Sequence record: NC_016158.1
Direction: 5' to 3' (one strand)
Source: Escherichia phage HK639
Length of the DNA: 49,576 nucleotides
Shown in pieces: positions 2,274-44,437 of the stretch (within the stretch, counting starts at the first letter, position 1; each line of letters starts with the position of its first letter). The notes under the pieces are model-generated. The model was not told the origin of the DNA, ran no database searches, and saw only the letters and a list, made by a program, of their open reading frames with translations. Made by a program: the position numbers and the translations under genes.

Positions 2274-3674
2274 ATGCCTGACATTTCAACACCCAATCTG
2301 GACTATGGGAACATGGTCGAGGCGTGGGATATCAACGATGCCCTGATGGGCGGCACGCTCTATATGCGACAGCTGGGCGAGCAATATCTACCGCGCTGGC
2401 CGAAAGAAGACAAAGAGGACTACAAAAAACGCCTCGCCGTGGCCACGCTTCTGCCAGCCTACGAAGAGACCATTAAGCAAAACATCGGGCGTGTATTTGC
2501 TGAGCCCATTAAGCTTGCCGAGAATGTGCCGGATCAGCTGCGAGAGTATGCGAAAAACTTCGACCTTGAGGGGACGCGCCTGGACGTATGGGCGCAGGCA
2601 TTCTTCGGTCTGGCGATGCAGTATGGCCTCTCCCACGCGCTGGTGGATTATCCCAGGGTGGACACCGAAAAGGTGAAAACCAAAGCGGAAGAGAAAGCTA
2701 CTGGCGCGCGCCCATACGTCACCATGCTCAATCCCCGGCAGGTGATCGGATGGAAGTCGAAAATGGTAGACGGCAAAGTGGTGCTGACCGAGCTGCGTAT
2801 CAAAGAGGTAGTTATCGAGGACGGCGACGACTTCGGGCAGACAAAGGTCGAGCAAATTCGTTATCTGACACCTGGAATGGTGCAAATCTACCGCAAGTCG
2901 AAAGGTATCGATGGGGCGGCGAACTGGGAGAAGTTCGACGAATGGACAACATCTCGTAAGGACATAACACTGGTGACGCTCTACACCAAGCGCACCGGGT
3001 TTATGTGTGGTTCACCTCCACTGCTCAATATGGCTCTGCTGAACATCAAGCACTGGCAGAGTCAAAGCGAGCAGGACAACATTCTGCATGTCGCCAGGGT
3101 GCCGTTGCTCACGGTGTTCGGTTTGGAAGAGGGGCAAGAGCTGATAATTGGCTCGTCTTCAGCTACGTCGTTCACTGATCGGCAAAAGCAGGGTCTGGAA
3201 TACGTCGAGCATACAGGCTCCTCCATCGGTGCTGGTAAAGAGTCGCTGGCAGAACTTGTGGAGCAGATGCGCCAGGCTGGTGCGAAGCTGCTGCGTACGG
3301 AAAACACCTCTACCAAATCGGTAGACCAGACCTCCGAAGAGAAAATGCAGGAGCAGTCACCGCTCTACACCATGGCTACCAGCCTTGAAGATGCGATCGA
3401 CAACATTCTGCAAATCATGGCCGAGTACATCGGCGAGAAAGATGGTGGCAACGTTGATGTTCGCACCGAGCTGGATGTTGAGTCGAAAGAATTCAACCCG
3501 CCTGCTGCACTGGCTATTCAGTCCCTGCGCCAGGGCGGTGACCTTCGCCGTATCGATGCGATTAAAGCCCTGCAAAAACTCAACCTGATTGATGCCGATG
3601 CGGATCCTGATACGGTGCTGAGCGAGTTGCTGGCCGAGTCTGCGTCGCTGAGTGAACCACCGCCGGGGGTGTGA
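2274..3674 (+). CDS. portal protein
   Basis: 466 aa, directly downstream of large terminase and upstream of head morphogenesis gene; size and position typical of portal. Confidence 0.6.
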   Translation: MPDISTPNLDYGNMVEAWDINDALMGGTLYMRQLGEQYLPRWPKEDKEDYKKRLAVATLLPAYEETIKQNIGRVFAEPIKLAENVPDQLREYAKNFDLEGTRLDVWAQAFFGLAMQYGLSHALVDYPRVDTEKVKTKAEEKATGARPYVTMLNPRQVIGWKSKMVDGKVVLTELRIKEVVIEDGDDFGQTKVEQIRYLTPGMVQIYRKSKGIDGAANWEKFDEWTTSRKDITLVTLYTKRTGFMCGSPPLLNMALLNIKHWQSQSEQDNILHVARVPLLTVFGLEEGQELIIGSSSATSFTDRQKQGLEYVEHTGSSIGAGKESLAELVEQMRQAGAKLLRTENTSTKSVDQTSEEKMQEQSPLYTMATSLEDAIDNILQIMAEYIGEKDGGNVDVRTELDVESKEFNPPAALAIQSLRQGGDLRRIDAIKALQKLNLIDADADPDTVLSELLAESASLSEPPPGV

Positions 3675-25938: not shown

Positions 25939-26006
25939 TGTGTTAAATGGTGCTCTACGTTCTTCTAAGCCGTAGGTCGTAGGTTCGAATCCTACAGGGC
26001 GTGCCA
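25939..26006 (+). other. tRNA-Arg(UCU)-like 3' segment ending in CCA; candidate attP core
   Basis: Anticodon-loop-like CTTCTAA, T-arm GTAGG-TTCGAAT-CCTAC, acceptor AGGGCGT-G-CCA; no matching 5' acceptor strand upstream; 15 nt from int stop. Confidence 0.55.
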
Positions 26007-26021
26007 TTTAAAAACAGTCGC

Positions 26022-27185
26022 TTACGCCAGTTTCAAGCCAGCCTGATTTTCTCCTTGTGTCGTATTTGTGTCATGGTTGCCAAAAATGGCATCAATTTTC
26101 CGTGCGTGTTCGCTTAAGTGGTTCGGTGCCAGGTGAGCGTATCGACGTACCATTTCGATGGACTCCCAGCCGCCCATTTCTTGCAGAACTGACAACGGAA
26201 CGCCGGACTGAATTAACCAGCTCGCCCAGGTATGCCGGAGGTCATGAAAACGGAAGTCTTCTATACCCGCTCTTTCCAGTCCAATGCGCCAGGCGACATT
26301 GTCATCCACTCGCATTTTGCGGACAGCCGGAGTGACGGTTTTATCCGGGCGCGTTGATGGCTTCGTGTGAACGAATACCCACCTGGAACTTTTCCCGATC
26401 TGATCCCTTAACACCCTGCATGCGGTATCATTCAGAGCCACGCCGATAGCCTTGCCCGCCTTCGCGTTCTCCGGATTTACCCATGCAACCTTTCTCTGCA
26501 TATCGACCTGCTGCCACTCCAGATCAATGATGTTGGAGCGGCGCAGGCCGGTTGCCAGTGCAAATATCACCACCGGCTTTATCGACTCCGGCATGCAGGA
26601 GATAAGCCGTTCTGCCTCGTCCCTGGTCAGCCATCGGATGCGTTTGCTGATCGGCTTTTTCGTTTTTATAACCGGGGCCGTTTTAATCCAGCCCCAGTCA
26701 TTAGCCGCAGCCTTGAACAGAGATCGCATGAAAGAAAGGTGCTGACTCTTTGTGGCCTGGCTTACCGGTTTCTCAACATACGGAGGCGGTTCCTTCCCCC
26801 GGCGTATAGCCGCGTCCCTGCGCGACTCCCAGACCTGAATATGCTTACGGTTGACCATCTTCGAAACAGCCTCATGAACCTGATCAGCTGTGATGGTTGA
26901 AATATCCCGGCCGGAGAAATGCCGCAGGAAATATTCGATTTTGGTCTTATCGTCATCGAGTGACCGCTTATGCTCCTTCTCACGGAGCCACCTGATGCAA
27001 CATTCCTCAAACGTCCTCGTCGGTAGTTCCCCAATTTTATCCACCCGCCACGCTTCAGCCTTCAGCTTGTCGTGCAGCTCCTGCGCTTGTTTCTTGTCCC
27101 CCGTACCAAGAGATCGTCTAATTCTTTTCCCTGACGGCGTAACGAAATGACAGTGCCAGACGCCGCCTCTGAGGGTGATTGACAT
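26022..27185 (-). CDS. int: tyrosine integrase
   Basis: 387 aa; C-terminal catalytic signature [39 protein letters not shown] (R..H..R..Y). Confidence 0.9.
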
Positions 27186-32536: not shown

Positions 32537-33048
32537 GATGCCTCCCTGGCTTTGGCATTTGCCGCATTGATGGCGTCAATGTTCATCAGGCAGTAGATAG
32601 CGCATTCTGCGTCGTAATCACTCAGCCCGCCGCTTGCCAGCTTGTTAAGTGCAGTGCCAGTTAAGCCGATCTTGAAGCAGATAGAGCCGTGCTTAGGGCC
32701 ATATCCATAACGATGATCTTCACGCTGGTCGCTCCATTGGGCGTAGTTTTTAGTGCCAAAATAACGCTCGCTCAGGCGCGGAAACCCGGATGCAATGTCG
32801 TTAATCGCATCTTCAACACACCCGCGCCGCTCCATGCTTTGCTTCGGGTCTCCGAAATTAACGATCGTCATGCCATGCTGGACCATCTCAACCGTAAGGC
32901 CTTTATTGGCCTGGTTGATTCCTTCAGACACGGCAATCAACTCCTTTCCGATACGTGAGGTATCGTCAACAAACTTCGCCTTCAACTGAGCCAGCTCAGC
33001 TTCAATTGCCATTTTCTTTTTGGTCAATTCGATAAGAGTCATAATCAT
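32533..33048 (-). CDS. hypothetical protein
   Basis: 171 aa, N-terminal coiled coil. Confidence 0.45.
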   Translation of the reverse strand: MIMTLIELTKKKMAIEAELAQLKAKFVDDTSRIGKELIAVSEGINQANKGLTVEMVQHGMTIVNFGDPKQSMERRGCVEDAINDIASGFPRLSERYFGTKNYAQWSDQREDHRYGYGPKHGSICFKIGLTGTALNKLASGGLSDYDAECAIYCLMNIDAINAANAKAREAS

Positions 33049-33177
33049 CTCCGCGCTTAAGGCCGCGCCGCCGAACGTTAAACAAGACTTCTGCGCTTGT
33101 GCGAAAAATATGCTGGCGGTGGATGGCCGCCGGTTGTCATAAATGGGCAGACTCGAAAATCTGCCTATGTATGGCCG

Positions 33178-33202
33178 ATAAAAAACCCGCCGGAGCGGGT
33201 TA
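33178..33202 (-). terminator. hairpin with T-run (minus strand) at end of membrane-protein gene
   Basis: Minus strand AACCCGC-TCCGGC-GGGTT followed by TTTTTTAT; overlaps the gene stop. Confidence 0.45.
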
Positions 33203-33649
33203 CTTAATTAGTGAGGCTGCGTATTCGAGGAGATACAGTTTTGGGGCCAGCCAGATTTTTAGCCACGTCAGGTCAGATAAGATGACGAAGGCGATGACCG
33301 AATACAGGAACATAATGGTTCCAAAAAACACTGACGAAGCACTGATAGTGCCGTCTTTGTCCCAGACCAATGTTGGTCTATATTTTGGCTTGCCGCGTTC
33401 CCATGAATATCCCTCTTCGCCATAAACTCCGTCCTGCTCGCGCTTCATCATTACCCTGAAGAATTTAATCGCAACCGGGATAGTCGCCAGAATAACCAGC
33501 GTGAGCATCATGCTTTTGGTGAATTTCCATACCAGCAACTGATGCACAACCTCCGGGATCTGCGCTTGGCTAAATGACACCGCAGCATCGATGCCATTCG
33601 CCGCTTTCTGTAATAGATCAACGAGAATTTTGTTCGCTTGTTCGTTCAT
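33200..33649 (-). CDS. membrane protein (two predicted TM helices), possible exclusion-type protein
   Basis: 149 aa; hydrophobic stretches MMLTLVILATIPVAIKFF and VFFGTIMFLYSVIAFVIL. Confidence 0.5.
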   Translation of the reverse strand: MNEQANKILVDLLQKAANGIDAAVSFSQAQIPEVVHQLLVWKFTKSMMLTLVILATIPVAIKFFRVMMKREQDGVYGEEGYSWERGKPKYRPTLVWDKDGTISASSVFFGTIMFLYSVIAFVILSDLTWLKIWLAPKLYLLEYAASLIK

Positions 33650-33693
33650 AATTGCCCTCTGTCGTTACCCGCAGATGCGGGAGAAATGCTTTG

Positions 33694-33763
33694 TGGTGGA
33701 GTGCTCCGGATTCGAACCGAAGTTTTCATGGGTGATCAGTCCATGCAGGCCCAGCCACACCCC
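33694..33763 (-). other. tRNA-like element (T-arm, acceptor 3' strand, CCA) of non-canonical structure
   Basis: Minus strand reads GGGGTGT...TTCGG-TTCGAAT-CCGGA-GCACTCC-A-CCA; 5' GGGGTGT can pair with 3' GCACTCC via two G-U pairs; only 35 nt between, so no canonical D/anticodon arms. Confidence 0.3.
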
Positions 33764-33887
33764 ACTACAAAACATTCCAGTTATTGCCGGGGTATTTATC
33801 CGCGCCCGGCGCGCGCTTTCCCGCTATTCCCCAACAGCAAGAAATCGCTTACTCTTTAATCTCCCCAACAGTAGAAAGGATATATTC

Positions 33888-34109
33888 ATGCAAACCATGC
33901 GGACCGTGTGCCCTGACTGCGGAAGTGAGATGTTCAACCAGCCCGATGATTTTGACTTTGAGACAAATTTCACCGGCGTCAGTTGTGCTGACTGTGGTCG
34001 AGAAATCACTAAGGACGATGTTGTCAATCAGGCCACGGACACGGTCAAAAAACAGATCGACGACATGCTCAGGAATTCCCTGAAAGGAACTGGCTGGAAG
34101 TTCAAGTAA
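33888..34109 (+). CDS. zinc-ribbon protein (CxxC...CxxC), orientation uncertain
   Basis: 73 aa MQTMRTVCPDCGSEM...VSCADCGREI with RBS AAAGGA; antisense ORF 33849..34196 (113 aa, RBS GAGGGG) is an alternative reading. Confidence 0.35.
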   Translation: MQTMRTVCPDCGSEMFNQPDDFDFETNFTGVSCADCGREITKDDVVNQATDTVKKQIDDMLRNSLKGTGWKFK

Positions 34110-34236
34110 CCTTAAAAGCTCCCCGAACTGAGTAAGAACCTCACTGGCGTCTACGTTAAGCAGTAGTGGCGCCGTTTTTTTATCTGCCATACACACCCCT
34201 CTGTTTGTTTACCGTCAGCCCCTCGCAAAGAGCTGC

Positions 34237-34253: not shown

Positions 34254-34486
34254 ATAATTGCCGCTCTTCCTGAGCCCGCCTATGGTCCGACGCATGGTTT
34301 ACTGTCGCGCCGTTCGACTGACCGAATCTCCACTTCGCCGCTGGCTAACTTCCCTCAGCTATCGATGTTTCGTTTCGATGGATTAAAGATAACCTTAGTT
34401 ATGAGTGATGGCAATAACCTAATTTATAATATCAATCACATAAGTTATAAATTAATGATAACTAAATGAATTTATTTTTGTAAATC

Positions 34487-34723
34487 ATGAGTGCTATGCT
34501 CACAAAAACAGCAGGAGGGATGTGCATGGTTCTGGATGAAGAGCGTATAAGCATGAAAATTCAGGCGATGGGGCGGGCGGTGATGGAATTGTCACTGGCT
34601 GATTTACCCATGACCCAGCAAAACATCATCGACAAGCTGGAGCAGTACCGGAAGGAAACAGGAAACGTGATAGGGAAGGGCGTGAACAGGGATGCGGCTG
34701 AGATAGTGTGGAAAGGCTTATAG
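34487..34723 (+). CDS. hypothetical small protein (true start may be internal Met)
   Basis: 78 aa; preceded by very AT-rich promoter-like region; weak resemblance of C-terminal part to Hha/YmoA-like proteins, not verifiable. Confidence 0.4.
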   Translation: MSAMLTKTAGGMCMVLDEERISMKIQAMGRAVMELSLADLPMTQQNIIDKLEQYRKETGNVIGKGVNRDAAEIVWKGL

Positions 34724-34760: not shown

Positions 34761-34926
34761 AGGATGACAGCGTTTACCAGAGGGATCGGGTTGTTTACCA
34801 GCTGGCGGGGAATAGACGCCGTTAATGCCAGCATCCCATAATATTCAATTGGTTACGCTGACGTGGTGGTGGTGGTCGAATGGGGATCGGCAGACACAAA
34901 AAACCCGGCGCGGGGCCGGGGAGGGG

Positions 34927-36291: not shown

Positions 36292-36981
36292 TCAAAGCTT
36301 GTTGTAAGCAATGGACTCATGGATCAGCGCCTTACCCATGATGTACAGCTGGTCCTGATTTTCTTCTGTCACATACCAGTCTTTGTACGCCGGGTTATCG
36401 GAAAGTACAGCCAACTGCAGACCCTGCATTTGCAGGCGCTTAACGTGGAAGTGCTGCCCGAAGACAAACGCATACACCCCGTCAACTTTGAAGTTCCTCA
36501 CTGAAACGTCAAAGAAGAGGCGATCGCCAGACTGTATTGTCGGGCACATGCTGTCGCCGTCTACGGTCATCACCTTCACATCATTTTGAGTGCGGTTCCC
36601 GAAAAGAGATCTGGCATGCTCAGTTGTGAACTCAATAGCATGCAGGACCTCAACAAATTCAGAAATCATAAAAGACCCCGGACCAGCGCTTACTTTCAGG
36701 TCTAAAACATCAACCCGAAAGACATCAATTGTTTCCGAGACCGGTTGGGCCGCCGATGGCACATTACCATCAATCCGCATTTCCCCCACTCCAGAACTAA
36801 GCCATTCCGGCCTTACACCCAGAGCATGAGCTAGCTCGACCATCTTACGGCTGCCGCTCGTTTTACCTGATGTCATCTTTTGAATTGCAGGCTGGGATAT
36901 ACCGACTTTATCAGCCAACTGTCCTTGAGATATGTCAGCGGCCGACATAGCCGCGTTCAGTCGTTCTGCAAATGTTTTCAT
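36292..36981 (-). CDS. cI: CI-type prophage repressor (HTH plus S24 peptidase domain)
   Basis: N-terminal HTH QGQLADKVGISQPAIQKMTSGK; C-terminal S24 domain with GDSM motif (VDGDSMCPTI) and conserved Lys region; divergent from cro. Confidence 0.85.
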   Translation of the reverse strand: MKTFAERLNAAMSAADISQGQLADKVGISQPAIQKMTSGKTSGSRKMVELAHALGVRPEWLSSGVGEMRIDGNVPSAAQPVSETIDVFRVDVLDLKVSAGPGSFMISEFVEVLHAIEFTTEHARSLFGNRTQNDVKVMTVDGDSMCPTIQSGDRLFFDVSVRNFKVDGVYAFVFGQHFHVKRLQMQGLQLAVLSDNPAYKDWYVTEENQDQLYIMGKALIHESIAYNKL

Positions 36982-44362: not shown

Positions 44363-44437
44363 GGGTCAGAAGCACAGCGGTTGTGCGTTCGGCTGTTAAC
44401 CGAATGGTCGAAGGTTCGAATCCTTCCTGTCCCGCCA
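44363..44437 (+). tRNA. tRNA-Asn (anticodon GUU), phage-encoded, one U-U mismatch in acceptor stem
   Basis: Manual fold: acceptor GGGTCAG/CTGTCCC, D-stem GCAC/GTGC, anticodon stem TTCGG/CCGAA with loop CTGTTAA, T-arm GAAGG-TTCGAAT-CCTTC, discriminator G, CCA. Confidence 0.6.

Follow-up and report, generated by a model that had tools for sequence, protein, structure and literature searches.

In phage lambda, the N leader carries an RNase III processing site, a long double-stranded RNA (dsRNA) stem, between nutL and N. The M3 RNA of phage phi80 was reportedly first noticed in work of the 1970s, as a distinct small RNA species induced by that phage. The precursor of this phi80-induced RNA is a substrate of RNase P (Bothwell et al., 1976, as cited in PMC11143913, PMC5499578, PMC10731613), and M3 has been described as a hairpin-like substrate with no equivalent of a T-loop (PMC5499578). 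The leader-encoded RNAs C4 of phages P1/P7 and CI of phage P4 are likewise processed by RNase P (PMC5499578). So far, these RNase P-processed phage leader RNAs have been isolated cases. Here we describe a tRNA-like element of 70 nucleotides (nt) on the minus strand of Escherichia phage HK639 (NC_016158.1), at positions 33763..33694 of the 49,576-nt stretch that was analysed, which we call the window. It is one allele of a hypervariable slot of phi80-like phages, located in the leader of the leftward early promoter pL. In our preferred reading, to which we assign a probability of roughly 55%, it serves as a punctuation cassette for RNase P that derives from a tRNA.

A tRNA-derived element

The element reads GGGGUGU-GG-CUGGGCC-UG-CAUGG-ACUGAUCAC-CCAUG-AAAAC-UUCGG-UUCGAAU-CCGGA-GCACUCC-A-CCA. 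A first, sequence-only reading of the stretch had described its minus-strand letters, its acceptor stem, the gap within it and the stem and loop in that gap, and on re-reading all of these details proved correct. The acceptor stem has 7 base pairs (bp), GGGGUGU/GCACUCC, including two G.U pairs (G3.U70 and U7.G66), and 35 nt separate its 5' strand from the T-arm. An anticodon-like arm consists of a 5-bp stem and a 9-nt loop, which can alternatively be drawn as a 7-nt loop with an A.C closing pair and a pyrimidine, C37; the loop has a U in a U33-like position and GAU at its centre. In place of a D-arm there is a mini-hairpin, GGC-UGG-GCC, of 3 bp and a 3-nt loop, with no G18G19 loop. The parts are arranged as follows:

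33694..33763, minus strand: tRNA-like element, 70 nt
33757..33763, minus strand: acceptor 5' strand
33748..33756, minus strand: mini-hairpin GGCUGGGCC
33727..33745, minus strand: anticodon-like arm
33705..33721, minus strand: T-arm
33698..33704, minus strand: acceptor 3' strand
33697, minus strand: discriminator A73
33694..33696, minus strand: CCA, the 3' end of the element

The T-arm (G53-C61 with U54 U55 C56 R57 A58), the 7-bp acceptor, the discriminator and the CCA are those of a canonical tRNA. The acceptor/T half is thus tRNA-derived and the whole is not a canonical tRNA, and the earlier wording of a minimal tRNA-like structure or degenerate tRNA fits as a description of an element in which T-arm, acceptor, discriminator and CCA are intact and the D-arm and anticodon loop are non-canonical. 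The acceptor pairs G1-C72, G2-C71, G3.U70 and G4-C69, together with A73, make up the AlaRS identity set common to tRNA-Ala and tmRNA.

In the covariance-model search that had been proposed as a check, the tRNA and tmRNA models are negative; ARAGORN calls a tRNA-Ile(gat) at exactly the coordinates of the element (33694..33763, minus). The element has no match to Rfam RF00005, neither at the gathering threshold over the whole window (29 bits, a score for the full cloverleaf) nor at E<=10 in the 451 nt of 33500..33950; as a control from the same window, a tRNA-Asn scores 63.9 bits with this model. ARAGORN finds no tmRNA, and the only Rfam match to one in the local region at E<=10 is a chance-level 9.8-bit tmRNA_permuted match that stems from the T-arm and ACCA. 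A custom scan for a 5-bp stem enclosing a TTCRANN loop, followed by 7 nt and N-CCA, with a 7-bp complement 25-110 nt upstream, returned two matches in the window, namely the element and an attP-like tRNA-Arg fragment (25950..26006). The same scan gave 0 matches in 300 dinucleotide-preserving shuffles, so the element is real and not a product of chance.

Position within the pL leader

The window is a lambdoid genome with an integrase gene (26022..27185, minus) and a gene for an S24/HTH repressor (36292..36981, minus). The sequence-only reading had placed the element upstream of the leftward early operon, in its control region. Given that pL lies upstream of it and that the conserved leader and the first pL gene lie downstream, the element instead sits inside the pL leader, downstream of the promoter and on the sense strand of the transcript. 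The features of this region, in the direction of leftward transcription, are:

34920..34904, minus strand: predicted strong terminator closing the repressor operon
34386..34414, minus strand: pL promoter from the promoter scan (-35 TTGCCA, 17-nt spacer, -10 TATCTT)
34257..34381, minus strand: initial segment of the pL leader, CCATCGAAACGAAACATCGA...GAGCGGCAAT, with homology to the beginning of the phi80 pL transcript
33891..34109, plus strand: ECs_2282-family zinc-ribbon gene of 72 amino acids (aa; NCBIfam NF047912), a moron antisense between pL and the slot
33768..33778, minus strand: conserved 5' flank of the slot, GGAATGTTTTG, directly 5' of nearly all inserts at 126 loci
33764..33767, minus strand: UAGU, the last leader nucleotides, whose G(-2)U(-1) can pair with A73-C74; predicted RNase P cut at 33764/33763
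33655..33693, minus strand: trailer CAAAG and conserved leader CATTTCTCCCGCATCTGCGGGTAACGACAGAGGG, sharing 95% identity with the 42 nt that immediately precede phi80 gene N
33668..33681, minus strand: leader hairpin CCCGC-AUCU-GCGGG, within the conserved 34-nt leader (33688..33655)
33655..33659, minus strand: Shine-Dalgarno GAGGG of the conserved leader
33200..33649, minus strand: first pL-operon gene past the leader, 149 aa, phrog_3054 (187.7 bits), with two hydrophobic segments by hydropathy
33184..33201, minus strand: predicted terminator-like hairpin with T-run, in a tL1-like position after the first gene

The promoter at 34414..34386 is identified as pL because it lies within a segment (34336..34716) that is 76% identical by BLAST to the annotated pL/OL region of phi80. 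At the other end, positions 33117..33160, adjoining the tL1-like hairpin, are 84% identical to the phi80 tL1 region. The phrog_3054-family gene occupies the position of phi80 N, of which the window has no homologue anywhere, and is followed by phrog_13608, phrog_6396 and Kil, a typical pL-operon content. The conserved leader is present in a single copy in the window. Between the conserved start motif of the pL transcript and the element lie 618 nt, and no minus-strand terminator is predicted from pL to the element. In most relatives that have the window allele, it starts 151 nt past this motif, and in several of them (L011, L023, L091, L106 and L114; loci are given by our own numbers) the leader runs directly into the slot at that distance; the antisense zinc-ribbon moron of about 450 bp accounts for the difference.

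Two mutually antisense open reading frames (ORFs) had been reported to overlap the element. They exist as frames (33591..34109, plus, and 33665..33775, minus) but not as genes: in the longer one only the C-terminal 72 aa, from 33891 onwards, match a family (83.4 bits with NF047912, cutoff 37), and protein-coding readings of both are also ruled out by the wholesale replacement of slot alleles by one another. The ECs_2282 gene likely starts at the ATG at 33891, which is preceded by an AAAGGA Shine-Dalgarno, and the minus-strand ORF 33849..34196 (115 aa, no family match) is probably a shadow ORF. In E. coli RefSeq records, PGAP annotates coding sequences (CDSs) of 150-157 aa as 'ECs_2282 family putative zinc-binding protein' (L005 2473..2946; L006 2524..2976). 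Their length is explained by an upstream extension over the RNA slot; the family model spans only about 60 aa.

A hypervariable slot in phi80-like phages

Phi80 has a homologous slot between its annotated nutL and N, filled by a 124-nt insert with a stem and GCCA (NC_021190.1, complement 32835..32958), where neither the older GenBank records nor the RefSeq record of phi80 annotate an RNA. The Enterobacter phages ENT1, BHUENT3 and BHUENT6, as well as many E. coli prophages, have both flanks in common and differ in the sequence between them. Scanning IMG/VR for the conserved leader yielded more than 120 viral contigs, including the window's own (IMGVR_UViG_2597490004_000001), and the resulting comparison set comprises 126 leader instances with 87 different upstream 150-mers. 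R-CCA stands directly before (C)AAAG and the leader in 110 of the 126 instances (87%), and on the 5' side the inserts are typically adjoined directly by the conserved GGAATGTTTTG(G).

The inserts themselves come in 54 distinct forms of 63-214 nt, which by our own count fall into about 17 unrelated classes. A closing stem of at least 5 bp is present in 53 of the 54, with 13 different stem sequences that are all complementary; for each independent class, a 6-bp helix at a fixed position would arise by chance with a probability of about 0.003. In 45 of the 54 inserts a hairpin is stacked with zero gap on the 3' strand of this stem, and some 87% of the slot instances share the architecture of closing stem, stacked hairpin and R-CCA. 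Compensatory changes are found in the stacked hairpin of the GAUUGGAUG class (GCCGG/CCGGC versus GCAGG/CCUGC). Genuine T-arms occur in independent alleles, namely the window type, L019 (called 'tRNA-Ser' by ARAGORN), L059 and L050/L081/L087, the last of which also have a D-arm-like GCUC/GAGC.

Within the commonest class (GCUGGC...GCCAGC-RCCA, 92-95 nt) lies a copy of 16S rRNA helix 11 in sense orientation, which matches RF00177 positions 237-283 with 37 bits (E = 3.4e-7) and E. coli 16S rRNA with 90% identity over 40 nt. It is found at L006 2576..2622 (minus) and at about 30 other loci, such as L034, L036, L042 and L055, and could be a mimic of the binding site of a ribosomal protein or assembly factor. 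Apart from this 16S fragment, Rfam at E<=1 over 10 related loci detects no tRNA, tmRNA, C4 or other family in the slot alleles. The genes past the leader are equally variable, and phi80-type N comes next in only 10 of the roughly 126 instances.

The window allele occurs in 20 viral contigs. The comparison with related phages that had been suggested for it showed that it is kept with 70/70 identity in 17 of the 20, as one allele of the slot shared with phi80. At least five upstream contexts and at least eight different downstream genes accompany it, whereas GGAATGTTTTG on its 5' side and CAAAGCATTTCTC on its 3' side are always present. None of 5,426 complete E. coli genomes contains it; the best matches there (84% identity) are the ENT1-type allele. 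Since 20 contigs with three uncompensated single-nucleotide polymorphisms (SNPs) make covariation within the allele impossible, structural support has to come from comparing different alleles.

The ENT1/GB089 allele (L005 about 2545..2607, minus) and the phi80 allele (L003 about 2541..2664, minus), which are otherwise unrelated, have a loop motif in common, GAAGAUAAG, in the contexts CCGG-AAGAUAAGCAC-CCGG and GCC-GAAGAUAAGUA-GGC, respectively; the two may thus share a loop that binds protein or RNA. In one upstream context, represented by L028, L034, L042, L045, L057 and L121, the slot is immediately preceded by an intrinsic-terminator-like hairpin, ACCCCGGCGNUGUCGGGGUUUUUGG, and has GGUGAGUGCUUUGG instead of GGAAUGUUUUGG as its 5' flank. 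This suggests that in phages with this hairpin the slot RNA and the downstream gene are expressed only after antitermination.

Candidate RNase P punctuation

RNase E prefers RN/WUU (the slash marks the cut), and the conserved AU-rich trailer would fit this preference at CAAAGC/AUUUCU. The determinants used by bacterial RNase P include U(-1)/G(+1), a 12-bp acceptor/T stack, the T-loop and an RCCA that pairs with L15 (PMC10731613). At the level of sequence the window allele has every one of them, in the form of U33764/G33763, stems of 7+5 bp, UUCGAAU and ACCA (33697..33694). All slot alleles combine a helix that runs up to an unpaired R-CCA with a hairpin stacked on it coaxially and a 5' leader that is short and conserved, and these shared features correspond to the same determinants. 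G(-2)U(-1) leaders are found in 18 E. coli pre-tRNAs (PMC10731613); in the window such a leader can pair with RCC, as can G(-2)G(-1) in most other alleles, and pairing of this kind also occurs in natural E. coli pre-tRNAs, where it slows cleavage and does not prevent it (PMC10731613).

We propose that pL (34414..34386) transcribes leftward through the antisense zinc-ribbon moron into the slot, which we strongly infer from the homology of the promoter to that of phi80 and from the lack of predicted minus-strand terminators. The 70-nt segment would then fold into the coaxial acceptor/T-arm stack (7+5 = 12 bp) with its UUCGAAU T-loop, U(-1)/G(+1) and 3' ACCA. RNase P would cut between U33764 and G33763 and thereby detach the upstream leader; here the determinants are present in the letters and the cleavage is what we infer from them. 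The trailer would be cut as well, probably by RNase E, and then trimmed to the CCA. The expected result is a stable small RNA of about 70 nt ending in CCA, along with an mRNA that starts a few nt before the conserved hairpin and Shine-Dalgarno. Such processing would provide a defined, hairpin-protected 5' end for whichever gene comes next and, as an RNase P counterpart of the RNase III cut in lambda, would make the first pL gene independent of the pL/nut leader. Provided that closing stem, stacked hairpin and R-CCA were kept, the slot would accept nearly any interior.

Several observations weigh against this proposal. The R-CCA module is absent from 16 of the 126 leader instances (about 13%), for example L008, L024, L058 and L092, L016, L063 and L073, or L007 and L077, and the leader can therefore function without it. 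Some of these module-less leaders follow the stop codon of another gene and others follow a phi80-like nutL leader ending in ...GGGCUGGGCUGAAUUA(G)AG; because it occurs without the module, the leader, with its hairpin and Shine-Dalgarno, is a reusable junction by itself, and R-CCA could be conserved merely as a part of the flank. In most alleles the leader ends in G(-2)G(-1) and so may base-pair with C74-C75, a pairing that makes RNase P about 10-fold slower in model substrates (PMC10731613). Most alleles also have G(-1), and their closing stem and hairpin add up to 13-15 bp, not 12. The three SNP variants of the window allele are all uncompensated, and two of them break helices. Furthermore, M3 is only possibly the phi80 allele of the slot, a link of position and plausibility. 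The 124-nt phi80 insert likewise has no T-loop, but it folds into a multi-branched structure, not a simple hairpin, so that the descriptions of M3 and of this insert may not fit each other.

Alternative explanations

The released RNA might itself be the selected product, in which case the slot scaffold would yield an abundant and stable small RNA (sRNA) and the variable interior would be a mimic or decoy cargo. This account, which overlaps the punctuation reading and differs from it only in what selection acts on, seems to us possible though rather unlikely. The interiors are large, strongly structured and not minimised, falling into discrete classes of 63-214 nt; the commonest allele has its sense copy of 16S rRNA helix 11, and the alanine-identity acceptor of the window allele (G3.U70 and A73) would turn it into a tRNA-Ala/tmRNA-like acceptor mimic that AlaRS might charge. 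Against this, G3.U70 is confined to the window allele among the slot alleles, and no interior motif is conserved across classes, save the GAAGAUAAG loop in two alleles. More speculatively, and in our view doubtful, the slot could be a cassette-exchange 'display scaffold' from which RNase P, followed by RNase E and exonucleases, excises and stabilises mimics of host stable RNAs that mislead host factors early in infection. The cargo would comprise the tRNA-Ala/tmRNA-like acceptor with G3.U70, the 16S helix 11 copy and other tRNA chimeras, and candidate targets would be AlaRS, ribosomal and assembly proteins or RNA-targeting defence nucleases. Equally doubtful is the opposite proposition of a decaying tRNA pseudogene, or of mosaic junk that hitch-hikes without function between recombination-prone conserved linkers. 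Lambdoid genomes do swap modules at conserved junctions. The element is not recognised by the tRNA covariance model, its D-arm is truncated, its loop has 9 nt and position 37 is a pyrimidine; its variants are uncompensated and its fold energy is unexceptional (-23.1 kcal/mol, z = -0.71). Junk would not, however, keep T-arm, acceptor and CCA intact while the rest decays, nor would it stay 70/70 identical in 17 contigs with different neighbours, and about 17 unrelated inserts in one slot would not all end in a complementary stem and RCCA.

An antisense RNA with a role in immunity or regulation, like P4 CI or P1-P7 C4, processed by RNase P and pairing with the phage's own transcripts, would share with the element the layout of a structured small RNA in an early-operon leader and an RNase P-type 5' end (PMC5499578). 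We regard this as very unlikely, as the rest of the window offers no complement to the element longer than 11 nt, a length equal to the median for shuffled elements, and no linked antisense target is apparent given the many different sequences found upstream and downstream of the allele. Halves of tRNA genes from the 3' side, ending in CCA, make typical attP cores. The sequence-only reading had considered a relic integration site. A relic or secondary att site, copied from the 3' half of a host tRNA gene, is hardly credible here: the T-arm/acceptor half GGTTCGAATCCGGAGCACTCC, with or without ACCA, has 0 exact matches in one genome from each of 100,044 species, int (26022..27185) is 6.5 kb away and is adjoined instead by the tRNA-Arg 3' fragment at 25950..26006, and the 5' acceptor strand, missing from att cores, is complete in the element. 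There is just as little to be said for a functional, decoding tRNA-Ile(GAU). The ARAGORN call, the U33-like U, the central GAU and the intact T-arm, acceptor and CCA speak for it; yet RF00005 gives no match at E<=10, there is no D-arm with G18G19, the loop has 9 nt (7 nt if closed by an A.C pair, with C37), and the acceptor identity elements are, as is well established, those of alanine and not isoleucine.

Other RNA features of the window

Three further RNA features were found in the window:

25950..26006, plus strand: 3' part of a tRNA-Arg(UCU)-like gene, GTGCTCTACGTTCTTCTAAGCCGTAGGTCGTAGGTTCGAATCCTACAGGGCGTGCCA, with an anticodon loop containing UCU, T-arm, acceptor strand and GCCA
44363..44437, plus strand: canonical tRNA-Asn(GUU), 63.9 bits
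44780..44985, plus strand: STnc100-family sRNA, 52.6 bits, following tRNA-Asn

The tRNA-Arg(UCU) fragment lies 15 bp from the integrase ORF and is probably the attP core, which would imply integration into a tRNA-Arg gene. STnc100 is related to PasD, a prophage-encoded Pas sRNA (2026 preprint). The anti-sRNAs of enterohaemorrhagic E. coli (AgvB/AsxR) and the Pas/STnc100 sRNAs were considered as occupants of the same locus as the element and rejected, since their locus is the pR' moron site of the late region. We also set aside, without formal test, a put-like antitermination RNA and a nut site, given a slot that is hypervariable while its flanks are conserved.

Implications

In place of isolated cases, more than 120 contigs of phi80-like phages and prophages of enterobacteria present a whole family, with at least 17 unrelated inserts in a single pL-leader slot. 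In the searchable literature we came across no account of lambdoid pL leaders with a hypervariable cassette of the RNase P type. The slot explains both the recurrent ARAGORN 'tRNA' calls and the over-extended ECs_2282 CDS annotations in prophages. If the RNase P punctuation reading holds, comparative genomics of these alleles would help to establish the in vivo requirements of RNase P for substrates other than tRNA. Lambdoid phages would then separate the first early gene from the pL/nut leader by tRNA-style punctuation, not by the RNase III site of lambda, M3 RNA would receive a testable map position, and variable interiors such as the 16S helix 11 copy and the alanine-identity acceptor might be functional mimics. 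Were the slot indeed to display decoys, this would give the 50-year-old M3 RNA a role and would define a new class of phage RNA decoys.

Comparison with known systems

Punctuation of longer transcripts by tRNA-like folds is known from mascRNA at the 3' end of MALAT1, from mitochondrial tRNA punctuation and from E. coli tRNA-tufB co-transcripts. In all three a tRNA or tRNA-like fold marks the sites of RNase P and 3' cleavage, as we propose for the element; they belong to other organisms and contexts, and none is a hypervariable cassette in a phage early leader. With tmRNA and tRNA-Ala the element shares the acceptor pairs, A73-CCA, the T-arm and a reduced D region, but unlike tmRNA it has no mRNA-like domain, tag ORF or pseudoknots.

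Among phage RNAs, P4 CI and P1/P7 C4 are small structured RNAs that RNase P cuts from the leader of an early operon, and their layout is like that of the element. They act antisense on linked targets, whereas no such target is detectable for the element, and there is no Rfam similarity between them. The RNase III site of the lambda N leader has the same topological position, between pL/nutL and the first gene, and also separates the leader from the mRNA, but by another enzyme and another architecture, a dsRNA stem as opposed to a tRNA-like stem with RCCA. Also among the closest counterparts is M3, a phi80-induced small RNA cut by RNase P from its precursor; the window has a phi80-like pL region together with the leader that stands in front of phi80 N. 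The flanks of the window allele and of the phi80 slot RNA align while their interiors are unrelated, and of the two RNAs, M3 and the window allele, it is the window allele that carries a canonical T-arm.

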